Assembly (NCBI GenBank): GCA_014729495.1 | Contig: WJJV01000112.1 | Span: 1-48,136 of the forward strand | From: Candidatus Woesearchaeota archaeon | GTDB taxonomy: Archaea; Nanobdellota; Nanobdellia; Woesearchaeales; UBA12501 | Length of the DNA stretch: 48,136 nt | Direction: 5' to 3' | Shown here: piece by piece, positions 3,501 to 41,297 of the stretch | Position numbering within the stretch: position 1 is the stretch's first letter | Layout of the letters: each line of letters begins with the position of its first letter | Translations under genes and position numbers: made by a program | Notes under the pieces: generated by a model | What the model was told of the DNA's origin: nothing | What the model saw: the letters and a program-made list of their open reading frames with translations, nothing else | Databases searched by the model: none

Positions 3501-4265
3501 TTCTCAGCAGAGAATGGGGGCAGGCATGATGTGCATATTGTCCACAATGGATCCAAAGTCCATAAGCTCGGGGACTTCTATGCGATTGCGGATGAACAGC
3601 CTCCTTTTATATGGGCAGAGGATAAGACAGGCTACACAAATGAGACAATATCAATAATGTACAATGCATATGACCCGCCTATGGAAGGCACTGTTGTCTT
3701 CCTGACTGGAGGCTCTAACAGCGATGTGACTGTAAATGTTGATCAAGACAACAACGGAGATTTTGATTATTCAATAGATGGAGGGCTTAATGAGATCCAG
3801 CTCAACTTCACTGAAAGCGGCCATTATCAGATCAAGTTCGCTATAAATGATTCAGGCGGGAACTATGTTGAGACATATTCAGATGTCAGTGTGTGGATCA
3901 CTGAGGATGAGGCTGACATTATCGGAATGTCAGTCTATTCCATGTTTGCAGATCTGTACGGCCTGATGGGATATGATTTCAGCCATACTGTCGGAGCTTC
4001 AAATCCCATAGTGTATTCAGAATGGGACAGGTTCAATATCATCCAGGAGAATCTTGGAGATGAGTACATCACACCAGGAAATGGAGATGATCTCACACAG
4101 GCAGAGATTGATGGACTGCAGAATGTGATTGATGCATGCAACGGACCTGAATACGTGAAGACAATACCTCCTTCAACAGCTGAAGAGTTCAACCAGACAC
4201 TCTTTAGCTTCCTTATGCACCTGCAATGTGATTGCGGCATGCCTTTGACAGGCCCTTCTTGTTAA
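594..4265 (+). CDS. Giant secreted or lipid-anchored surface protein with parallel beta-helix repeats and a CarboxypepD_reg-like domain
   Basis: 1223-aa ORF with a strong SD. It has an N-terminal signal peptide with a lipobox-like MIASC. Repeated N-rich ~22-aa turns (NNS.IG..V.G.NN..) resemble NosD/PbH1 beta-helix. IYGRVVDAETGQPLAGKEVSI resembles carboxypeptidase-regulatory domains. There are D/C-rich linkers and many N-x-S/T sequons. Confidence 0.7.
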   Translation: MGASMRMLILAIILCLSMMIASCSEHGSSDLITGKAVKSVFKENNDADAQEDLLKINNGSQEEHDITEMPAQGSKECGIIRGSASSGNQQDSDSAPRTDHVTKIVENQKGRIEFKQDIDASKHDILIDDNLISVEPDPGVGALLTLKGDFDSTPIIVRDGEYCSGCRIIDHSGGRVVFEVPHFSEYTVMECFNLTDDFVINNPGDYTICRDWTVADQQNDSVILINSSNVSIDCKGHSMTGDRTGVGIYIGNPPEMDHWMNITQNLEDLMPILNDTAGFVENLTYLHSISIKNCNIKDFEHGMNITAIENSEIVNNSFDNAPMFLAMKDSLVENNEIKNSVLGMIVIASNASVRNNLIHNNSGIGLGVGGLNNTVEYNDVFGNLNGMAMAGFRNVFRYNNATDNQENGFGLVFAADCEAYGNILTGNQGSGISIAESSNNTIYSNLMMGNDAGISMNGLFGPGPSDGNIIDNNTMINNSVGMRIKDGSLMDLFAAIGNMLSRAFTGKARYEAPPHRITDTVITGNTFSNPDDMIVESRAFESNLIIYNEFSSKDSWDISGLRQENTVISNRGECDTDNDCDDNDPDTIDMCRASTCVNEIATIYGRVVDAETGQPLAGKEVSIIPASECNAADDETGQGDCIPEPKSEPEAVTDSQGRYAVAAPPGIYHVVVSGSREDTLNRYVGNEVSSIEIPSDGQIKVVVEPERIEAGFHSTAYVKAGSITAKVFDDSHVTQTPVFVDVAGTDNLEFVIEVQGNYPYRYTYNLSSIDANNHISFSDNRYRPDSINGSNQAIIDQLDGDTWRLWFEDLPPGHPWQDNDYDDVIFLIDFIPSGSNSTGNDTDYDCDDDSIPNYLDEDDSWCDKGDEETEIVNDTVTGLYTEGHILYSGRFSGNNRYIAGDTLQFVIFGTNNLSTSENVTFLIEDHTINTGVNGTAAYAGNTSDINEVLEIQNDGTRHERVFNLTIPPYFSAENGGRHDVHIVHNGSKVHKLGDFYAIADEQPPFIWAEDKTGYTNETISIMYNAYDPPMEGTVVFLTGGSNSDVTVNVDQDNNGDFDYSIDGGLNEIQLNFTESGHYQIKFAINDSGGNYVETYSDVSVWITEDEADIIGMSVYSMFADLYGLMGYDFSHTVGASNPIVYSEWDRFNIIQENLGDEYITPGNGDDLTQAEIDGLQNVIDACNGPEYVKTIPPSTAEEFNQTLFSFLMHLQCDCGMPLTGPSC

Positions 4266-4313
4266 CTTATTAACCAAAAATTTATAAGTAACTTATTCTG
4301 TTAACCTGTTAAC
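4261..4313. promoter_or_regulatory. Two GTTAA-N4-TTAAC palindromes flanking a TATA-like box, abutting the start of the small ORF
   Basis: 4261-4274 GTTAACTTATTAAC and 4300-4313 GTTAACCTGTTAAC, with TTTATAAG at 4281-4288. The ATG at 4314 immediately follows site 2, giving a leaderless-like geometry. Confidence 0.4.
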
Positions 4314-4574
4314 ATGGCTAAAAAAGAGTCTGGATTCTCTCAGAATTATGCTATCTACACCTATGATATCTCAGATCTTGAACCAAGCAAAAGAGTGAGA
4401 TTTGTCTATGCCCTCAAAGGCAGAGGTGATGAGAAAGGCCTTATAGAAGAGCTGGGAGGCATTTTCCTGGTGCCTGGCTGCTTCAGGATCCCTGCTGCAA
4501 AGAGCAGAGAGATAGACTCAGTATTCAGACTCTGGAAGGTCAGGAATAAGAGATACAAAGCGTTAATGGATTAA
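4314..4574 (+). CDS. Small basic hypothetical protein (86 aa), possible DNA-binding regulator
   Basis: The ORF sits between the two giant surface-protein genes and is K/R-rich. The beta-alpha-beta-like start YAIYTYDISDLEPSKRVRFVYALKG is weakly reminiscent of Cas2/ferredoxin-like folds (unverified). It is bracketed by four operator-like palindromes. Confidence 0.6.
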   Translation: MAKKESGFSQNYAIYTYDISDLEPSKRVRFVYALKGRGDEKGLIEELGGIFLVPGCFRIPAAKSREIDSVFRLWKVRNKRYKALMD

Positions 4575-4614
4575 CACAATAGGATAAAAGGCATAGTTAT
4601 GTTAACATATTAAC
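4562..4614. promoter_or_regulatory. Two further GTTAA-N4-TTAAC palindromes upstream of the subtilisin gene
   Basis: 4562-4575 GTTAATGGATTAAC (overlaps the stop of the small ORF) and 4601-4614 GTTAACATATTAAC. The SD AAGAGG and the ATG at 4649 follow. Confidence 0.4.
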
Positions 4615-4648
4615 AAGAAGAGGCAACAGCACCAAAAAGAGGCAGGAA

Positions 4649-7600
4649 ATGGGCAGTGATGATAGGATAGAACAGCTGATCAAAGAGCATGACAGGACTG
4701 ATGATGAATATGCTTCAGGAAAAGAGAGGATAAGCAGGCTGCAGTATGCTGTTATGTTTCTTGCACTGGCTTTTATGCTCTTTGGATTCTTCCTTATCAT
4801 AGAATACGGCGTGAGCCATACAGGGTATGCTGTGATAGAACAGAGCGGTAAAGTTGAGAGTGATGTTATAGAGGATCTTAAGGAAGGCGGAGAAGCAAGG
4901 GTGATCATAGTCCTTGAAGAGAATGAAGACAGCAGGAAGCAGGATTTCACTGGAATGAATCCTGAAGAGGTGGAAGATAAAATCAGGGAAAAGAAAGAGA
5001 AAGTCAAAGAAGCGCAGAAAGAGATAATAGATGATATCTCTGAGAGACCAGACAAGAAAGTAGGGATAAAACGCGCTTTTGAGCTTACAAATGCATTGAG
5101 CGCCAATGTGACAAAAGAAGGCATAGAAGAGCTGATAAAGAACAACAAGGTAAAAGAGATAATCAGGGACAGGCCAATAAGCATATCTCTCAGCGACACT
5201 ATCAGCATGATAAATGCTGATGATGTGCACCAGATGAGCATAAGCGGGACCAGCATTGAAGGACAGGGTATCAGTGTCTGTGTCATAGACACAGGGGTTG
5301 CTTACACACACTCAGCATTTGGCAGCTGCGCAAACACAACAGATATCAATGATGGATCATGCCAAAAAGTGGTTGGAGGATATGATTTCGTGAATGAAGA
5401 TTTCAATCCTCTGGATGATAATGGACATGGAACCCATGTTGCAGGAATAATCGCATCAGAGGATGCTGCTTACAAAGGGATAGCTCCCAAAGCAGGCATT
5501 GTGGCAATAAAGTCACTTGACAGCAATGGAAGCGGTTTTGAATCTGATGTGGCCAGCGGAATAGAGTGGTGCATCAGCAATTCCACGCTTCTGAACATAT
5601 CAGTGATAAGCATGAGCCTCGGAGAAGGCCAGTATACAGATGACAACTGCCCATCTACTTTTGATTCAGCGATAAACGCTGCCAATGCTCTTGGCATAAT
5701 GGTGGTTGCTGCTTCAGGAAACAACAATAATGATGATGCGATAAGCTCTCCTGCATGCTCTCCTAATGTCACATCTGTAGGGGCAGTTACAAAGACAGAC
5801 AGCATACCCAGCTTCTCGAACAGCCACCCTATCCTTGACCTTCTTGCTCCTGGAGTTTCTGTGGTATCAGCAGTGCCTCCTGAGAGCTACTGCACAGGAG
5901 ATCCAGGAGAGGCAAGCTGCAGTGACTCTCTATTCATGAGCCTGCAGGGAACATCCATGGCAACACCCCATGCAGCAGGAGCAGCTGCTCTGATATACCA
6001 GTATGAGAAGCTTCTGAGCAGCAGGAATGCCACCCCTTCAGGAATAGAGAGAATCCTCAAGAGGACAGGGATCAGCATAGATGACACCAGAAACAGCCTT
6101 TCTTTTCCAAGAATAGATGTGCTTAGTGCAGTCAATGCTGTCCTTCAGATCAATGAATCAGAGAACTCAGTGAATGATGCCCAGAATAATGCAAGAGTGG
6201 TCTTCAGGACAGGCACAGACCTGGAAAGGGCTTCAGAAGCATTTATCATAGAGGAAAATCTCATAAGCCTGAATTCATCTGCATACCCTGAATTCAACAA
6301 GCCAGCAGACCTTATCCTATACAATCTGGACTTTGCCAAGACACCGGTTGTACTGAAGGATGGAGTCGCGTGCGCAATCCCAGACTGCAATGTCACATCC
6401 TATGATGGAAACCTTAGCTTCTCTGTCGCAGGATTCTCAAACTATACCTCAGGAGCAAATGCCAAGCTGAGCATATTTGATGAAGTAGATAATGGGACTA
6501 CAAGATACACGCATGAGAACATAACATTCTATGCCAACTACACCAACATGACATCAGGAGATCCCATAAGCACAGCAGTCTGCAACATAACATTTGATGA
6601 CATGACAAACTCAACAATGACCTATGAATCCTCAACAGGATTCTATAATTACACCAGGGAATTCCTGACAGCAGACCTGTATCATTGGAATGTGAGCTGC
6701 GAAGACAGTGATGCAGAGCCGTTGAACACAACAGATGACATAACAGTCCTGCCTGGCTGCGGCCTGCCCCCTCCAGGCATTGACTGGAACATATCAGATG
6801 CTACTGTCAACTGCAACAATGAGAATCTTTATTTCCAGAATCAGAGCCTTATTGTCCAGGGCAATTCTACTTTGATACTGAACAACAGCCTGCTGACCCT
6901 CAATCAGTCCCCGTCTGATCAGAACATAACAATAATGAACAGCACAAAGCTGATAGCATATGATTCAAGAATACAAAGCCAGGCTGCCCCATACAACTTT
7001 GATATCATTGTGTACGGAAACTGCACTCTCTTCAATGTCACAGGAAACCAGTCACAGTATCACTTCAAGGCCAGTTCAAGCAGAATACAAAATTCTGCTT
7101 TTCAGGATTATATGTATTTTGAGGGCAATTCTGCAGTAGAGGTATATGATTCTGTATTCAATGGCAGGGTGTTCTCGCAGGAATCTGCAGTGCTAAAGAC
7201 AGATAACTCCACATACAATGATTATGTGTTCCTGATGGGATCATCAGACAACACCATAAGCAACTCAGCATTCAATAGCAGGCTGTATTTTGATGACGCC
7301 TCAGTCACAAATTTCACAACACCCGGCTCTTTAGTATCTGCGGCCTATTTCCAGGCAGCTTCACCAGCAATATACGGCCATGCAGATATGCCTGATACTG
7401 CTTCTTTCTATCAGGCCGGGACAATGACCACAAGACACTACCCAATCCAGATCAATTACACAAGCGGAAATCCTGTGAACCGCACGCAGGTAAATATCAC
7501 TAATTCTTCCAGCAGTGCCCTGATGTGGACAGGTTATACTGACGAGAACGGTCTTGCGGATGCTGTGCTTAAGTTCAGCTCAGATAACTACACTGAGAAT

Positions 7601-21960: not shown

Positions 21961-22436
21961 AGGGGTCTGTCCGGAATGAAGGTCATTGTCAAAATACTCA
22001 TTCCATTCGTATTTTTTCCCCTTTCAGCATTGCATGCTGAAAGCATCAATATGCGAAGCTCTATAATATATATTATTGAGGCTGTTGCAGGGGGAAGCCC
22101 CCTCCGAGGACGCAGGCCTTTAATATAAACAATCAAGAGCTGAGCCGATGCTGACCCGAACTTTTTACGCAGAAAAAAGAAGATTTCGGACAGACCCTTG
22201 GGTTGGAAGGCTTAACACTGGAATTATGCGAAGTTGCCTGAATGAGAGCCTGAAGGGCTTGAATTCAGCAATTTGGGCGAACAAGTGCAACGCAGTGAGC
22301 TGCATAATTCCTGTTATGTTCGTCGCCAGTTACGAGCGAACATCATGGATGTCATCAATTATTTCTGGTAACTGAAATAAGCATATGAGCGGAGTTCTGG
22401 CGACCGAAGCCTCAAAGAGGCGAAGAGTAATTTTTA
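21961..22436 (+). ncRNA. Candidate large structured non-coding RNA (unclassified)
   Basis: No credible ORF. There is a 17-bp long-range helix, 21961-21977 / 22183-22199, whose two G-U pairs are allowed only in the plus sense. Nested hairpins: 21991-22015, 22021-22043, 22090-22102, 22161-22179, 22220-22311 (11 bp enclosing 22234-22271 and 22246-22260), 22316-22343, 22359-22380, 22409-22421. It ends at a T5 run at 22431-22435. Confidence 0.35.
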
Positions 22437-22481
22437 GGGGTGCTCAGGGAGCGTTAGCGGTGCATCAAGTTAAAGGAGTTC

Positions 22482-22498
22482 GGGGCAAAAACAAAAAA
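22482..22498. repeat. Left inverted repeat GGGGCAAAAACAAAAAA
   Basis: Exact reverse complement of 24413-24429. It also serves as an oligo-T terminator on the minus strand for the Lrp-like gene. Confidence 0.85.
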
Positions 22499-22499
22499 C

Positions 22500-23468
22500 C
22501 TAGAATGGATAGTATGTCATCCTATGTTCTTTAATTACTTCTATAATCTCATAATCTTTAATTTCCAAAGCAAATTCTTCTCTTAGTTGTTTAATTAAAT
22601 TATCAAAATCTTTTTTTTCCAAAACTTCGATTTCTAATTCAACATCAAAATCACTAATTACTTTAATAAAAGTAAGAATATTTTTATTCATTTTTGATAT
22701 TGTTTTTATTTTGTTATATTTTTCTTTATCCATTCTTTGGAGTTTCAAAGATAATATATAGAAATTTCCTCCAATATTCTGGAAATTAATTTTTGTACTA
22801 AATCCTATGATAACATTTTTTTTCTGAAGGTTTTTTATCCTATAATTAATAGTATCTGGGCTGACATTTAATTCTTTTGAAATTTCAATTAAGGATTTTC
22901 TTGCATTTTTATTAAGTATAGAGAGTAATCTCTGGTCCGTTTTGTCTAACAATATCTCTTTTTCTTTTCCTCGGCTATAAATGAATTCTTCTGAATTTTT
23001 ATTTGGTAATAAATAAGCTTTAGAATAAGTATAAGCTTCTTCTAAAATAAAGATATTTCTTTCCAGAATGTAATCTTTCCATTTCCCAAATATCCTTTCG
23101 AATTTATTACTAAAATCATGAATATTTTTAACATAAATCGATGCCACTAAATCATATTTGCCTCTTAATGAAGATAACCAGAATACATTTTTTTCTTTAT
23201 TTAATTCTTTAATCATTTCTTGTTCTTTTTTGGGTGTAATATTGTATAATTTGATATAAATTTTAATATGCATAAATCCAAGTAGGGTTGGATTTAGTTT
23301 TACAAAGAAGTAATCAATCACATTTTTCTCCTGAAGATTGATTATTCTTGCAGCAACAGCTTGTTTTGATAAACCAACTTTTTTTGCTATTTTTTCATTA
23401 GTTTGCCTACTATTTTTATTTAGTTCATACAATATCTTTTTATCCTTTAGATCTGTTTTAATATACAT
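22500..23468 (-). CDS. Tandem (double) Lrp/AsnC-family transcriptional regulator
   Basis: 322 aa with two HTH_AsnC-like modules: KKILYELNKNSRQTNEKIAKKVGLSKQAVAARIINLQEKNVI and QRLLSILNKNARKSLIEISKELNVSPDTINYRIKNLQKKNVI. Each is followed by a RAM-like half. Strongly AT-rich codon usage. Paralog of 43877-44839. Confidence 0.75.
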   Translation of the reverse strand: MYIKTDLKDKKILYELNKNSRQTNEKIAKKVGLSKQAVAARIINLQEKNVIDYFFVKLNPTLLGFMHIKIYIKLYNITPKKEQEMIKELNKEKNVFWLSSLRGKYDLVASIYVKNIHDFSNKFERIFGKWKDYILERNIFILEEAYTYSKAYLLPNKNSEEFIYSRGKEKEILLDKTDQRLLSILNKNARKSLIEISKELNVSPDTINYRIKNLQKKNVIIGFSTKINFQNIGGNFYILSLKLQRMDKEKYNKIKTISKMNKNILTFIKVISDFDVELEIEVLEKKDFDNLIKQLREEFALEIKDYEIIEVIKEHRMTYYPF

Positions 23469-23588
23469 ATTAGAATAAAAACTGAAATAATATATAAATA
23501 TTACGGTTTTATTCTGAATCTATTAAGAAGGTTTTAAATAAATGTTCTTATTATTGAGTAATAAAAATAAATTAATTTTATCAAAAAA

Positions 23589-24410
23589 ATGGAAGATATA
23601 GAAATAATAAAAATAGGATATAAAAGTGAACAAATTAACTTGGGATTATTCCAAAGAGAGTGTAGTTTTTTAGATGATTACAAATTTGTTGATAAACTAA
23701 ACTCCAAATATGGAATAGATTTAAAAGTAATTAGGCCTCAAGTTGCTGAACTCTTAGTTAATGATCCACAGGGGGGTAAAGTTGCATCAGATTTTTCTCC
23801 TTTTATGACAAATGTAATAGTTGCCTACACTGGAAGAATGAACTTAAAAGAAACAGATAGGCAACTGAGATCTGAAATCTTTTATTCTGGGGGCGATAGA
23901 TCTTATATCTTACCTACGAAAGTACATGAGGGAAAGCAGGGTATTGCTATCGTAGTTCCAGATGTAACTGCAAGAGATTTTAATGAAGATAATGGAGAAG
24001 TTATACTGGATGTTCCTGAAGAAAGACTACTGGCGGTTGAAAACTTTCCTCCAACAAATGGTTGGTATCATCTTGATTCACTTACAACTATTCCAATAGA
24101 ACCTTGTGTTGCAGAATCTGTTGAAGCGAGATATTTAATAAGGGAACAAAAACCAACTTATCGTACAGGTTTATCATCCCAACTTGAGCCATTAATACCT
24201 TTTTCAGGTGAATATGTAGGTCCATTATATCGATGTGCACCATTAGTTGATGCAGAACGAGCAGGACAAGCTTTGGCACTGCAACCAACAACAACTAAAG
24301 GACTTATTCTTGAAATATCTGATAAGGATCTTAAAACTATGACTGGCGAAAAATCTAGTTTAGAGAGAATTGTTAATTTTTTTAGAAGTAAGAAAGAAGA
24401 CTTGACTTAA
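23589..24410 (+). CDS. Hypothetical protein (273 aa), no recognisable family
   Basis: A long ORF divergent from the Lrp-like gene across a 120-bp AT-rich promoter region. It is followed by the right inverted repeat / oligo-T. Confidence 0.55.
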   Translation: MEDIEIIKIGYKSEQINLGLFQRECSFLDDYKFVDKLNSKYGIDLKVIRPQVAELLVNDPQGGKVASDFSPFMTNVIVAYTGRMNLKETDRQLRSEIFYSGGDRSYILPTKVHEGKQGIAIVVPDVTARDFNEDNGEVILDVPEERLLAVENFPPTNGWYHLDSLTTIPIEPCVAESVEARYLIREQKPTYRTGLSSQLEPLIPFSGEYVGPLYRCAPLVDAERAGQALALQPTTTKGLILEISDKDLKTMTGEKSSLERIVNFFRSKKEDLT

Positions 24411-31568: not shown

Positions 31569-32147
31569 ATGGCTGATTCAGTGTTTAGAGGTGCACTGGT
31601 TTTCTTGGAAGAGATTGGCATCTATGATGTTGTCCTTCCGTTCCTTCTTGTGTTCGCCATAGTGTTCGCGATACTTGAGAAAACAAAGATACTCGGCGTT
31701 GATGTGATCGAGGGAGTTGAGTATCCAAAGAAGAGCATAAATGCGGTTATAGCATTTGTGATAGGTTTCCTTGTGATAATATCCACACGGCTTGTGGGAG
31801 CCATAAATGAAGCAATGGCTAATATAGTTCTCCTATTGCTTGTGTCTGTGAGCTTCCTGCTCATGATAGGAACTTTCTTCCATTATGAAGAGAAAACCTT
31901 CCTTGAGAAAGGAGGATGGAGGACATTCTTCATGGTCATAATGTTCATTGCAATTGTGCTGATATTCCTGCAGGCAATCAAGACAGATAGTGGTGTAAGC
32001 TGGCTTGAGGCTTTCTGGAATTTCCTGGCCAATAACTGGGCAACAAGCTATACTGCTTCAATAATACTTCTGGTTGTGGTAATAGTGGTCATACTGTTCA
32101 TAACATACGAAAGAAAACCATCAAAAGGAAAAGGTGAAGGTGAATAA
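31569..32147 (+). CDS. Multi-pass membrane protein, tandem paralog 1 of 3 (unknown family)
   Basis: 192 aa with 4-5 TM segments. The N-terminal LEEIGIYDVVLPFLLVFAIVFAILEKTKILG is near-identical to paralog 2. Confidence 0.65.
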   Translation: MADSVFRGALVFLEEIGIYDVVLPFLLVFAIVFAILEKTKILGVDVIEGVEYPKKSINAVIAFVIGFLVIISTRLVGAINEAMANIVLLLLVSVSFLLMIGTFFHYEEKTFLEKGGWRTFFMVIMFIAIVLIFLQAIKTDSGVSWLEAFWNFLANNWATSYTASIILLVVVIVVILFITYERKPSKGKGEGE

Positions 32148-32149
32148 AA

Positions 32150-32734
32150 ATGGGATATTTTGATAATGCTATCATCTGGCTGGATCAGATTGGAGTCGCT
32201 GATGTTATAGTGCCGTTCTTTCTGGTCTTTGCAATAGTTTTTGCTATACTGCAGAAGACAAGGATCCTTGGTGATCCAAAGAAAGTCAAGAATCTGAATG
32301 TGATGATAGCTCTGCTTCTGGGACTTGGAGTTGTCATACCTCATGTCACTGGAAGATATCCCACCCAATATGACATTGTTGAGATAATGAACAGGGCGCT
32401 TCCTCAGGTATCCCTTATAATAGTGGCTGTAATAATGATACTGCTGCTCATAGGCATGTTTGGTGGAGAGGCTAATTGGGTCACAGGCCCTTTTGCAGGC
32501 TTCATAGCAGTTATAGCATTCATACTTGTGATATACATCTTCGGAGCAGCAGCCAACCTCTGGGAGTACATAACCTGGCTCTACTGGCTGGATAATCCTG
32601 ATACACAGGCGCTGATAGTGGTTCTGCTGGTGTTCGGGCTCATAACATACTTCATAGTAAGAGAACCAAAAGAGTCCAAGGGAGAGGGCATGCTCAAGAA
32701 TATCTCTGATTTCTTCAAGAAACCAGGGGAATGA
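32150..32734 (+). CDS. Multi-pass membrane protein, tandem paralog 2 of 3
   Basis: 194 aa. LDQIGVADVIVPFFLVFAIVFAILQKTRILG. There is a 2-nt gap to paralog 1. Confidence 0.65.
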   Translation: MGYFDNAIIWLDQIGVADVIVPFFLVFAIVFAILQKTRILGDPKKVKNLNVMIALLLGLGVVIPHVTGRYPTQYDIVEIMNRALPQVSLIIVAVIMILLLIGMFGGEANWVTGPFAGFIAVIAFILVIYIFGAAANLWEYITWLYWLDNPDTQALIVVLLVFGLITYFIVREPKESKGEGMLKNISDFFKKPGE

Positions 32735-32742
32735 TGTGAAAG

Positions 32743-33315
32743 ATGGTTACTATACTTGATTCAGGACTGCTGGAGCATTTCACGCTCATATTCTCATTGA
32801 TATTCGTGATAGCGATAATCTATGGAATCTTCTCAATGGGAAAGGTGTTTGGAGACAACAAAGGCCTGCATGCGCTGATAGCGCTTGTTGTAGGGCTGCT
32901 TGTCATAATGGTCCCGGACATAACCAATATCATTGCTGTGATGATACCCTGGTTCACGCTGCTCTTCATATTCATACTGTTCCTACTGATAACCTATAAG
33001 ATATTCGGAGCCACAGATTCAGACATCATGAGCGTACTCAGGGTGGACAATGTGGTGATATGGGTCATTATAATAATAGCAATAGTGATCGTGATCGCCT
33101 CATTCTCAAATGTCTACGGCCAGAAGCTTCTTGAATCAGGAGATGGAGAGACTGTGGATGCAGATGACACAGCATCAATAGACTCGACTGCCAGCTCATC
33201 ATTCGGATCAAATGTCAGCGCGACATTCTTCCATCCAAAGGTTCTTGGCATGTTATTCATCCTGATTGTGGCAGTGTTCACAATATCACTGCTGGCCATG
33301 AAGACAAAGGCATGA
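32743..33315 (+). CDS. Multi-pass membrane protein, divergent tandem paralog 3 of 3
   Basis: 190 aa with the same TM layout. It carries an acidic/Ser-rich loop, GDGETVDADDTASIDSTASSS. Confidence 0.6.
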   Translation: MVTILDSGLLEHFTLIFSLIFVIAIIYGIFSMGKVFGDNKGLHALIALVVGLLVIMVPDITNIIAVMIPWFTLLFIFILFLLITYKIFGATDSDIMSVLRVDNVVIWVIIIIAIVIVIASFSNVYGQKLLESGDGETVDADDTASIDSTASSSFGSNVSATFFHPKVLGMLFILIVAVFTISLLAMKTKA

Positions 33316-33440
33316 AGTCATTGTATCTTGGATTCTATTTGTTTGATTACCTTAGATCATTCCTGGCCTTTCTGATAAGATGCTGGTCTTGTGACATTGG
33401 TAAGATAGCAAATCTTATTGTGAATGAATCTGGAATCTCT

Positions 33441-33660
33441 TCCTAGCCTCTCCGATCAGGTGCTGCTATCTCTATGTCGGAGAGGTGGCAATGGCTTTAA
33501 GAGGATTGTATTGCATTTTTCTCCTAGCCTCTCCGATAAGCGCAGCAAATCCGGCCACGGAGAGGTGGTTATTCCTTTTAGTTTATTCTATTGCAACATA
33601 CTCCTATACTCTCCGGTTAGACGTTGCTACCCTGACATCGGAGAGGTGGCACTCCTCTTA
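33441..33660. repeat. Three tandem ~80-bp units, each an 8-9-bp hairpin CCTCTCCG(A)/(T)CGGAGAGG over a 21-23-nt variable loop, followed by GTGG
   Basis: Stems at 33447-33455/33477-33485, 33528-33535/33558-33565 and 33609-33615/33639-33645. The period is 81 then 80 bp. The flanks TCCTAGCC and GGTGGCA..CTTT.AG are also conserved. Confidence 0.85.
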
Positions 33661-33670
33661 GCTTTAGCTA

Positions 33671-33962
33671 GGCAGCAACAACAAGGACGAATATTGAGTG
33701 TAGAGGGAAAACCAGTTACGCAGTTCTGGTTTTCCCTTTACGAATAGGACAAATTGCGAAGCAATTTGGCCGTATATGAGTCCACTGTTGTTGTTGCTGC
33801 CTTATAAGTTATAGTATCTCCTTTTTGGCCGTCTGCTGCCAGTATTGTTGTTGCAAATGCAGAGCTTTTGCAACTAAGAAAATGCAAAGCATTTTCTGTT
33901 GTTGCCGATATTAACTTAAAATATTATCATCGACCGTGTACGAATCCAATGTTGCTGCTGCC
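33671..33962 (+). ncRNA. Candidate structured RNA / repeat module region (unclassified)
   Basis: A 14-bp inverted pair, 33671-33684/33788-33801, encloses a 15-bp hairpin at 33701-33740 (its G-U pair is plus-sense only) and an 8-bp GAA-triloop hairpin at 33750-33768. Further hairpins lie at 33850-33874 and 33878-33896 (AAA triloop). The TCC..TGTTG.TGCTGCC module recurs. Confidence 0.35.
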
Positions 33963-34104
33963 TCCATAAATATATACTAATTTGTCCATCATTGTTTTTT
34001 GTAAATACAATCATTAGATTCTTGCTGCAATAAACATAAGAAGATACTGGGGAGCTGATTCATATAATAAATACTAAAAGCAACAATAAAAGAATTGACA
34101 AAGA

Positions 34105-34902
34105 TTACTTCTTCCCTGCTCCGCCTTTCATCTTGGCGGTTATCCTTGAGAGCTCATTCACATTCTCCATGAATCCTGGAAGTATCTTCTGGAATACCTT
34201 CTCAAGGGCCTTTATCTCTACTCCTATATCAACTATGCCCTTGTCATATTCTGAGATCTTTCCAAGAACTCCCTCATGGAGCTTGTCAAAGCTCTGGCCT
34301 ATATCAGTCATCTTCTGCTCAAGCTTTGTTATCCTGGACTCAGTTGAATCCTTCCATTCAACTATCCTGTTGACATTCTCTATGAGTTCCTGCCATTTCT
34401 CCTCTATGATGGCTTCAGCAATCTCATGGATTCTCTCTTCGCTCATGCTTCCTCCTGCCATTCCTGGAGGGTCCATGGGCGGCATGCCTGATGGAGGCGG
34501 TGGTGACTGCCCAGGTCCTGCCTGACTGTGCCCTGAGGATGGAGGGGGCATATCCGGAGGAGGCATGTTTCCTCCTCCCTGACCAGGATTATCCTGGCCT
34601 GTCTGTGCACTTCCTTGCCAATCCTGTGCTGGCGGCCTCATCTGAGTGGGTGTTGGCTGTTCTGGCATATTATCACCTCTGTTATCATTTGCGTCTAAAG
34701 CTCCTTCTTTCAGGTCAGCCTGGTTCATAGCCTGGCTTATCTGATCCAGTGAGTAACCCTGTCTTTGAAGAGTCTCGTATATCTGGTTGACAGTCATTCC
34801 CTGGTCCTTGAGAGATATTATCTTCTCTGTGGGAACATCTGAAGGAGCTTCAGGGGAAGGTTTTGAAGGCTTCTTTGCGAAAAGATCCTTTAAAAAAACC
34901 AT
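34105..34902 (-). CDS. Coiled-coil protein with an N-terminal two-helix motif and a P/G/Q-rich linker (possibly FlaC-like accessory protein)
   Basis: 265 aa. The low-complexity stretch PPDMPPPSSGHSQAGPGQSPPPPSGMPPMDPPG is followed by C-terminal heptad-like helices. Confidence 0.6.
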   Translation of the reverse strand: MVFLKDLFAKKPSKPSPEAPSDVPTEKIISLKDQGMTVNQIYETLQRQGYSLDQISQAMNQADLKEGALDANDNRGDNMPEQPTPTQMRPPAQDWQGSAQTGQDNPGQGGGNMPPPDMPPPSSGHSQAGPGQSPPPPSGMPPMDPPGMAGGSMSEERIHEIAEAIIEEKWQELIENVNRIVEWKDSTESRITKLEQKMTDIGQSFDKLHEGVLGKISEYDKGIVDIGVEIKALEKVFQKILPGFMENVNELSRITAKMKGGAGKK

Positions 34903-35418: not shown

Positions 35419-35581
35419 GAGCGCCTCTTTTTAGACAATCTGGTTGCTGGTTGGCTGCTGCCTGTGTGCTGTCTCTGTTGTACTGTTACTATTGAGAGTA
35501 TTCCATGATTAATATATAAATGTATTTGAAAACATACTAAAAATCTTATATGGATCATCTGCTTTATTCAATATTGATGTC

Positions 35582-40823: not shown

Positions 40824-40910
40824 AAAAAAGCATTTCTGAAGGATACAAAGAATTCTGTCTCAGAAATAATGCAAATGAAATCCCGACTTCATCTAAAATA
40901 TTAAATGCCT

Positions 40911-41185
40911 TAATAATGCCGACTCCTTTCAGTCGTCTGGCATTATTAAGCATTCAAAAACCAATTTTGCCGACTCAAAAGTTCGTCTGGCAAAATTATC
41001 AGAAGAATGCGTACAAAATTCCGACTCACTTTGTTTGTCTGGAATTTTGATGCATGTAAAAAGGCAAAATCCTATTGTGTAGAAAACATTAAATGCATAA
41101 ATAATCCCGACTCGCAAGCTCGTCTGGGATTATTAAGCATTCAAAAATCAATTTTGCCGACTCACAGGTTCGTCTGGCAAAATTG
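40911..41185 (-). repeat. Array of five hairpins with covarying A/T-rich arms and a conserved core (minus sense: CCAGAC-GA-N6-7-GA-GUCGG)
   Basis: Hairpins at 40911-40948, 40963-40997, 41014-41049, 41100-41134 and 41149-41185. Pairs H1+H2 and H4+H5 form a duplicated ~87-bp unit joined by AAGCATTCAAAAA. The minus-sense T7 run at 40823-40829 could terminate a tRNA-trailer transcript. Confidence 0.8.
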
Positions 41186-41195
41186 CTTTATTGAA

Positions 41196-41297
41196 TGGGA
41201 CAGCCGGGATTTGAACCCGGAACACCTAGATTTCTTATGCCTGGCATTGCCTGGAGAATCTTCAGTCTAGTGCTCTCCCAGGTTGAGCTACTGTCCC
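41196..41297 (-). tRNA. tRNA-Phe: tRNA-Phe (GAA) with a ~28-nt intron at the canonical 37/38 position; no encoded CCA
   Basis: Manual cloverleaf, in order: acceptor GGGACAG/CTGTCCC; D arm GCTC-AACCTGGGA-GAGC; anticodon stem CTAGA/TCTAG with loop CTGAAGA interrupted by ATTCTCCAGGCAATGCCAGGCATAAGAA; T arm CCGGG-TTCAAAT-CCCGG; discriminator A. Confidence 0.9.

Follow-up and report, generated by a model that had tools for sequence, protein, structure and literature searches.

The window analysed here is a stretch of 48,136 nucleotides from a Candidatus Woesearchaeota archaeon (contig WJJV01000112.1, assembly GCA_014729495.1). It contains a gene-free gap of ~790 bp (33316–34104) between two converging genes.

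32743–33315, plus strand: upstream flanking gene, the last of three paralogous multi-transmembrane proteins of ~190 aa (31569–33315)
34105–34902, minus strand: downstream flanking gene, a 265-aa coiled-coil protein from a family of at least 802 proteins

This gap is the longest in the window. An earlier note on this DNA, made from the letters alone, stated that most other gaps are tens of base pairs long, which was overstated, as those between open reading frames (ORFs) of at least 110 aa include six of 646, 605, 587, 469, 383 and 341 bp. The gap is non-coding, carries a fold that is conserved and covaries between genomes, and its distribution is syntenic but patchy. It is best read as a candidate for a new, lineage-restricted structured non-coding RNA locus, in which a three-way-junction core is well supported.

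The core covers ~131 nt, as delimited by comparison of the window with a distant relative, L034.

33671–33801, plus strand: conserved three-way-junction core
33671–33684 / 33788–33801, plus strand: P1, the closing stem, 14 bp
33784–33787, plus strand: bulge on the 3′ strand, 3–4 nt across genomes
33685–33688 / 33780–33783, plus strand: P1b, GGAC/GUCC (GAC/GUC helix)
33689–33690 / 33778–33779, plus strand: tandem GA/GA internal loop
33691–33694 / 33774–33777, plus strand: P1c, a short helix
33695–33699, plus strand: junction strand UGAGU
33700–33741, plus strand: P2 hairpin
33742–33746, plus strand: junction strand GAAUA
33747–33771, plus strand: P3 hairpin

By direct reading and repeat finding, all of the features listed in the earlier note were recovered at or within 1–2 bases of where it had placed them, with some corrections to their extent. 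The 14-bp inverted pair is real but is actually a perfect 15 bp (33670–33684 / 33788–33802), and the hairpin described as having 15 bp has arms of 16 nt (33700–33715 / 33726–33741) with one G·T pair.

To place the element among relatives the same neighbourhood was collected from public genomes and metagenomes, giving ~45 loci with a readable gap. In most of these the gap is 0–70 bp. Some 45 relatives, three of them close, have gaps of 0–90 bp, so that the element is accessory. The element was found, always in the same gap, in the following.

L001/L006, GCA_018812465.1: gap of 391 bp
L042, DATDWE010000088.1: gap of 524 bp
L034, JANQNH010000006.1: gap of 330 bp

Carriers so far amount to four to five genomes, all of them uncultured Woesearchaeota or Nanoarchaeota. 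Searching by nhmmer with the raw gap missed L034, which was spotted by reading through long gaps and was confirmed by a covariance model. Built from the core sequence of the window alone, this model, R1, recovers the fold at the syntenic position in L034 (76 bits, E 7e-17) and in L001 (35.9 bits, E 3e-6), with no further match in ~0.8 Mb of related loci from ~100 genomes and ~0.3 Mb of viral loci. In the alignment of the three full cores (window, L034 and L001), which was fitted to the model, 96% of the pair cells are standard pairs and both sides have changed in 25 of the 48 pairs. Shuffles gave 9.0 ± 2.4 double changes, with none of 500 reaching the observed values, and slid controls, where the partners were moved by 1–3 columns, gave 34–55% paired cells and 2–7 double changes. 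P1 alone has double changes in 9 of its 14 pairs, and its three outermost pairs are not the same in the window and L034 but are complementary in both. While the stems vary, the UGAGU, GAAUA and CCGU..UGAGUCC strands are conserved. That the stems covary while the unpaired strands and the bulge are kept speaks for a single-stranded fold rather than for protein-binding sites in double-stranded DNA, and this agrees with the novel structured RNA that was one of the options in the earlier note. The closing stem in L042 (GGCGGTGATGAT/ATCATCACCGCC) is as in L001 and is kept together with a 3-nt 3′ bulge.

The gap of L001 (873–1069) is an imperfect palindrome of ~200 nt, with an opposite-strand self-match in nhmmer of E 4e-8, because the P2–P3 module is present once in each orientation. 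A relative with a 61% identical coiled-coil protein, L118, has a 206-bp gap (1477–1682) with two stem-loop domains; their asymmetric loops, UGA-[mini hairpin]-GAA(U/C), recall the UGAGU-[P2]-GAAUA of the window core, and the core model gives no match.

The wobble pairs bear both on the strand and on whether the element acts as DNA. In the three cores the pairable non-Watson–Crick cells are all G·U on the plus strand (6/6) with no A·C, and one G·U of P2 is present in all three genomes, though the L001 P2 is otherwise unrelated in sequence. The earlier note had taken the G–U pair of its 15-bp stem to be allowed only in the plus sense; all six wobbles fit that strand. The plus-strand model also beats its mirror model by 6.8 bits for L034 and 2.3 bits for L001. 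The protein-binding DNA array that the earlier note offered as its other option is disfavoured, because such sites should conserve their sequence, whereas most P1 pairs are doubly changed and the wobbles are all G·U on one strand. A DNA-level element of any kind, be it an origin of replication or some other array bound by proteins (centromere-like or regulatory), seems highly improbable. Inverted repeats do adjoin a 142-bp stretch of 26% GC, as they might in an origin. However, neither orc1/cdc6 nor a partition gene lies in the window, the GC skew does not turn at 33–34 kb (though in a 48-kb contig it mostly follows gene orientation), L034 is without the AT-rich stretch, and the whole element is missing in close relatives, which is unlikely for an origin; the covarying stems, strand-specific G·T pairs and conserved bulge likewise speak against sites in DNA. 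A Pfam scan of the 39 window ORFs found no Orc1/Cdc6, and also no transposase, reverse transcriptase or cas gene. Part of the AT-rich stretch matches the ordinary short spacer seen in an element-free relative, L003. An origin, put forward in the earlier note as its weaker alternative, is very unlikely.

Taken together, a functional structured RNA of one kind or another is rather probable from the sequence comparisons. Given an RNA, it is likely that it would be read from the plus strand; a structured RNA element on the plus strand, as a joint claim, is tentative and falls slightly short of an even chance.

Around the core the gap is filled with repeated material. Upstream of it lie tandem units of ~80 nt.

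33361–33440, plus strand: U1, a degenerate first unit with 64% identity to U2, matched by the unit model R3 with 19 bits, E 0.1
33441–33668, plus strand: U2, U3 and U4, tandem ~80-nt units starting at 33441, 33522 and 33602 (spacing 81 then 80 nt)
33447–33454 / 33478–33485, plus strand: stem of U2
33528–33535 / 33558–33565, plus strand: stem of U3
33609–33615 / 33639–33645, plus strand: stem of U4

Each of U2–U4 consists of TCCTAGCCTCTCCG, a loop of 22–23 nt, CGGAGAGGTGGCA and a conserved spacer. The stems of U2 and U3 are CCTCTCCG/CGGAGAGG, with loops of 23 and 22 nt respectively, while that of U4 has only 7 bp (ACTCTCCG) with an A × G outer pair and a loop of 23 nt. The three tandem stem-loop units of the earlier note are thus present, but the shorter third stem and the decayed fourth unit at 33361–33440 had been overlooked. 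With up to 3 mismatches allowed, the gap has 4 copies of the 16-mer TCCTAGCCTCTCCGAT and the rest of the window has one, against an expectation of 0.45 for the whole window. The loops are also non-random, with the common pattern (A/G)U.AG..G(C/U)UGC...GAC.U. A model of the three good units matches those units, the decayed U1 and an orthologous unit in L042 (508–559; 32 bits) and nothing else; the stem of the L042 unit, CCTCGCC/GGCGAGG, has a compensatory change from U–A to G–C with respect to the window. Tandem units were found in only two of the four carrier genomes. A CRISPR array was rejected, as the whole 80-nt unit including the ‘spacer’ is homologous between copies and the window scan found no cas gene.

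Downstream of the core are partial copies of it, small hairpins and an AT-rich end.

33822–33854, plus strand: T5 run and then an orphan 3′ half-core, TTTTTGGCCGTCTGCTGCCAGTATTGTTGTTGC, by direct reading
33850–33874, plus strand: hairpin GTTGCAAATGC-AGA-GCTTTTGCAAC, with one T × T mismatch; this triloop was absent from the list in the earlier note
33874–33905, plus strand: module CTAA-(GAAAATGC-AAA-GCATTTTC)-TGTTGTTGC, with its hairpin at 33878–33896
33906–33932, plus strand: AT-rich hairpin CGATATTAAC..ATTATCATCG
33934–33962, plus strand: second orphan 3′ half-core, CCGTGTACGAATCCAATGTTGCTGCTGCC, ~75% like 33770–33801
33963–34104, no strand assigned: AT-rich spacer, 142 bp, 26% GC against 42.6% in the window, with T6 at 33995–34000

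The first half-core resembles the P3 3′ arm, junction and P1 3′ arm of an L001-type core, and TCTGCTGCCAnTATTGTTGTTGC within it is kept at 22 of 23 positions in L001. The recurring TCC..TGTTG..TGCTGCC module was confirmed at 33780–33801 and 33944–33962 and inverted at 33671–33689; what recurs is thus the core's 3′ arm, along with partial duplicates of it. Both triloop hairpins of the earlier note (33750–33768 and 33878–33896) are present, but their ‘compensatory’ difference compares paralogous palindromes and is no proof by itself, as real covariation is supplied by orthologous comparisons. In the metagenome-assembled genome GCA_964397315.1 the hairpin module occurs twice, at contig ends, as CTAAGAAAATAT-G(A/G)A-ATATTTTCTGTTGTT, with two compensatory pair changes relative to the window. 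The two contigs concerned (L156, 10583–10740, and L007, 4781–4858) both end in the gap at a near-identical 45-nt module, CTAAGAAAAT-hairpin-TGTTGTTGC, and it seems that a local or dispersed repeat broke the assembly there. As its repeats are read, the gap is one conserved domain amid locally duplicated and rearranged pieces of the same material. Neither this build from half-copies of a single core nor the patchy, accessory occurrence of the element was anticipated in the earlier note.

The AT-rich stretch of ~140 bp with its T6 run was as described in the earlier note. Its right part (34018–34104) has ATTCTTGCTG in common with the 54-bp spacer of L003, which lacks the element, and it is likely to be the terminator region of the coiled-coil gene, because it is U-rich on the minus strand. 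A related motif had also been reported in the minus-sense leader near 35440–35470. The match GGCAGCAGCC is real, at 35453–35462, but TGCTGCC is a low-complexity word with 10 copies across the window, and the L034 leader has no matching site; we therefore take it as a chance match, and pairing in trans with this leader was rejected, as the site is not conserved.

Folding energies set the gap apart from the remainder of the window. The z-score against shuffles for the whole gap is −6.0 on the plus strand and −5.5 on the minus strand, and when all 48 kb are scanned in sliding segments of 150 nt, 33601–33750 ranks first of ~640, with a z of −11.5. Five other large gaps of the window have only 0–3 short inverted repeats each. 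At the gathering threshold of Rfam 15 only the tRNA at 41196–41297 passes in the window. For 33000–34400, with E up to 10, the best match is to sRNA162 with 22.6 bits against a threshold of 78, and with E up to 1 no match was found in L034, L001, L042 or L118. The outcome of cmscan, with no Rfam 15 family in the gap, is consistent with a novel RNA.

Known RNA classes were considered and rejected. Archaeal RNase P RNA (RF00373) gives no match in the gap at E up to 10, nor in its three homologues at the thresholds tried, while as a positive control the model finds its target in another Woesearchaeote, L030, with 141.8 bits. A C/D box small RNA, which would be 50–70 nt long and bounded by RUGAUGA and CUGA boxes, is not indicated, as direct reading found no TGATGA on either strand of the gap; GUGAUGA in the stems of L001 and L042 lies within a helix, where the window has GCAACAA. 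Hammerhead, K-turn, bulge-helix-bulge, H/ACA and C/D junction readings, judged by eye, seem to fail on their defining nucleotides or geometry.

Could the gap instead be a decayed gene, or junk generated by slippage? A periodicity of 3 nt can be seen in the stem arms (GGC AGC AAC AAC; GGC GGT GAT GAT), and an ORF of 107 codons (33424–33747) crosses the units. Its product has no Pfam match, however, and it cannot be a repeat protein, because the spacing of 81 and then 80 nt shifts the frame. A hidden gene was rejected, as the open frames of the four homologous gaps lie on differing strands and in differing phases, both with the standard code and with each single-stop reassignment. In L005 a gene of 290 aa occupies the position of the gap, but by tblastn the gap shows no similarity to it and so is not its remnant. 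Moreover, neutral decay would not keep pairing through 25 double changes. A functionless remnant is accordingly a most improbable account of the gap.

The main rival to an RNA locus is a non-autonomous selfish repeat of the kind of a miniature inverted-repeat transposable element (MITE), BOX or Correia element. The closing stems would then be terminal inverted repeats, the units and half-cores the debris of insertion and duplication, and the structure a by-product, possibly co-opted. We consider this unlikely, though less so than any other competing explanation, and the points that weigh against the RNA interpretation have to be set out here. The element is absent from L003, L157 and L158, whose membrane proteins are 80%, 70% and 71% identical to that of the window and whose AT-rich gaps are 54–87 bp; in the element-carrying L001 and L042 the membrane protein is 80% and 78% identical. 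The core of L034 is 80% identical to that of the window, far above its flanking proteins at only 39–49% (membrane protein 39%). Absence from close relatives combined with such core identity in a distant one suggests mobility, as judged from these sequences, rather than an ordinary host RNA gene. The inner hairpins of L042 are in reversed order and R1 does not reach this locus, while L001 has an inverted copy of the P2–P3 hairpin module; both arrangements are more typical of rearrangement at the DNA level than of one fixed RNA. Many of the hairpins have loops of 3 nt and are otherwise almost perfect palindromes. The covariation counts are tilted in favour of the structure, because the alignment was fitted to the model and holds only three full cores. 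After control for composition the folding z-scores are about equal on both strands, and as they do not separate the strands and the wobble pairs are few, the strand call is suggestive only. Finally, a role as a terminator alone would not explain the structure, as archaeal termination needs U-tracts and aCPSF1.

A selfish repeat would also fit the modular make-up of the gap, with its tandem sub-units and orphan half-copies, and the break of both GCA_964397315.1 contigs at a repeat. Pneumococcal BOX, a modular structured repeat of the form boxA-(boxB)n-boxC, is likewise intergenic and co-transcribed (PMC3049150). Against it, all copies lie in one syntenic gap: the core and unit models found no extra copy in the 48-kb window, in ~36 kb of the other carrier genomes or in ~0.8 Mb of ~100 relatives. 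The terminal three pairs differ yet remain complementary, which is the opposite of ends recognised by a transposase, and there is neither a target-site duplication flanking the core nor a transposase nearby. Viral contigs hold no copy, and a viral or mobile origin was rejected after four motif scans of such contigs gave either nothing or chance-level matches, all of which the covariance model rejects. A protein-seeded metagenome scan returned distant relatives only (≤52% identity) and no new copy.

Since close relatives lack it, the element is dispensable; either it is under strong constraint in the genomes that carry it, or it is exchanged horizontally. The core, 80% identical where the flanks are 39–49% and yet missing at 70–80% membrane-protein identity, might even represent a new class of RNA module, self-contained and either mobile or catalytic, that moves between distant Woesearchaeota into the same convergent gap, the half-cores and units being traces of repeated arrival. 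We regard this as a long shot.

Returning to a structured RNA on the plus strand, its most likely origin would be a 3′ extension of the three-gene membrane-protein operon made by read-through, because no TATA-like box is evident on the plus strand before the units and the nearest strong U-tracts are those at 33822–33826 (T5) and 33995–34000 (T6). A further T5 run on this strand is at 33516–33520, and by direct reading the gap contains no run of five or more U on the minus strand. In archaea terminators are defined by U-tracts and aCPSF1, and hairpins are not required (PMC8716108, PMC7515710). The mechanism that we favour, as a proposal, is that such an RNA acts in cis as a stable 3′-terminal structure, which could protect the operon mRNA from 3′-to-5′ decay, insulate the converging transcription units from one another, or both. 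For an RNA from the plus strand, this role in the 3′ untranslated region and all other roles together seem evenly balanced. The conserved junction nucleotides could serve as a platform for protein binding, and local duplication would have piled the modules round the core, with four ~80-nt units upstream and two 3′ half-cores and three small hairpins downstream.

Alternatively, the gap might encode small RNAs, one or several, that are transcribed independently from promoters of their own on either strand and act in trans, for example by sequestering a protein through the repeated UGAG(U/C), CGAAU and GCUGC, or as an antisense regulator. Short motifs do recur in the loops and junctions of all modules; TATA-like AT-rich boxes to the right of the structured part could drive minus-strand transcripts, and L034 has a AATTTAATT box ~25 nt before the closing stem on the plus strand. 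However, the wobble pairs argue against the minus strand, the leader target at 35453–35462 is not conserved and its motif is common, and no promoter position is conserved across the four genomes. This explanation is distinctly doubtful.

The setting of the gap is itself widespread. No Pfam family was found by a Pfam scan in the three membrane paralogues (31569–33315), which keep an FFHPK(V/I)LG motif near the C terminus and in many Woesearchaeota adjoin coiled-coil genes and a PilB-like ATPase. The label ‘pilin’ was dropped for these genes, as the proteins are multi-transmembrane. Members of the coiled-coil family with a source name are from Woesearchaeota or Nanoarchaeota. Beyond 34105–34902 there follow a second coiled-coil gene, small ORFs, a PilB-type ATPase and a 760-aa protein, and the gene order of the window is repeated across many contigs of Woesearchaeota and Nanoarchaeota.

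Elsewhere in the window and its relatives other hairpin arrays were seen. In L030 the RF00373 RNase P RNA (4508–4822, minus strand) is convergent with a homologous coiled-coil gene, and the 340 nt between the two (within 4170–4822) hold three tandem units of ~47 nt with GGATTTCA(A/G)C-TTCG-(T/C)TGAAATC hairpins; the space downstream of the coiled-coil gene is thus filled by unrelated hairpin arrays in different lineages. A second, unrelated array lies in the window at 40870–41195, between the end of the 760-aa gene and a convergent tRNA. Each of its five tandem hairpins has an AT-rich arm of 8–10 nt, CCGACTC, 4–6 nt, (G/T)TCGTCTGG and the complementary arm, and the outer arms covary between copies. 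This pattern has 4 exact matches against 0 expected and a folding z of −7.7, the second most extreme in the window. Rfam has no family that matches the array, 120 related loci contain no copy of it, and it is missing from the syntenic gap of L002. The tRNA (41196–41297, minus strand; Rfam 57 bits) has 102 nt and presumably contains an intron; it is missed by ARAGORN in bacterial mode, and the syntenic tRNA region of L002 looks longer. An AT-rich region at 22000–24000 (GC 0.34 at 22001–23000 and 0.27 at 23001–24000, against 0.43 overall) spans a gene for a double AsnC-type helix-turn-helix regulator (22500–23468, minus strand) and its flanks.

The genomes of DPANN archaea are very small and contain little non-coding DNA, and their regulatory RNAs are almost uncharted, so that a non-coding locus of 790 bp is unusual; a literature search on non-coding RNAs of Woesearchaeota and DPANN found nothing relevant. 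A covarying three-way-junction domain beside a conserved cell-surface gene cluster of membrane paralogues, coiled-coil proteins and a PilB-like ATPase is a concrete candidate for a new class of archaeal RNA, and the mismatch between RNA and protein conservation makes it a test case for the horizontal movement of structured non-coding elements in these lineages. If it were a selfish repeat, it would to our knowledge be among the first BOX/Correia-like elements described in DPANN archaea. The sequences compared are few, but they make a believable case for a new RNA motif in an archaeal group about which little is known, and its evolutionary pattern is odd.

Compared with known systems, the likeness to RNase P RNA is slight: the P2 strand GAGGGAAAACC loosely recalls the conserved GAGGAAAGUCC, but the GAGGGAAAA strand simply folds as a hairpin, and L001 does not have it. 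Type III antitoxin ToxI arrays and CsrB-type sponge RNAs are regulatory RNAs built of tandem repeats. The units share with them the head-to-tail hairpins and the short motif recurring in loops, but the window has no downstream toxin gene or known partner protein, and units are found in two of four genomes. At archaeal origins ORB (origin recognition box) or mini-ORB repeats flank an AT-rich unwinding element beside orc1/cdc6. Inverted repeats adjoin an AT-rich stretch in the window too, but without orc1/cdc6 or an ORB-type repeat, and here the AT-rich part is unconserved and the element dispensable. Interspersed structured repeats of bacteria include Correia/NEMIS of Neisseria, enterobacterial ERIC and REP/BIME. 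With these and with BOX the element shares modular tandem sub-units, extensive structure, an intergenic and probably co-transcribed position and a patchy occurrence; those families, however, number tens to hundreds of copies, dispersed and with their ends conserved, whereas here the data searched show one syntenic locus with covarying ends in an archaeal host. A further comparison is with orphan structured RNA motifs identified through comparative genomics, such as those of published candidate sets (PMC2864571). While the window element differs from these in matching no Rfam 15 family even at E up to 10, in being ringed by duplicated fragments of itself and in being known from four to five genomes, it is like them intergenic and ORF-free, with covarying stems, conserved junctions and a fixed neighbourhood.

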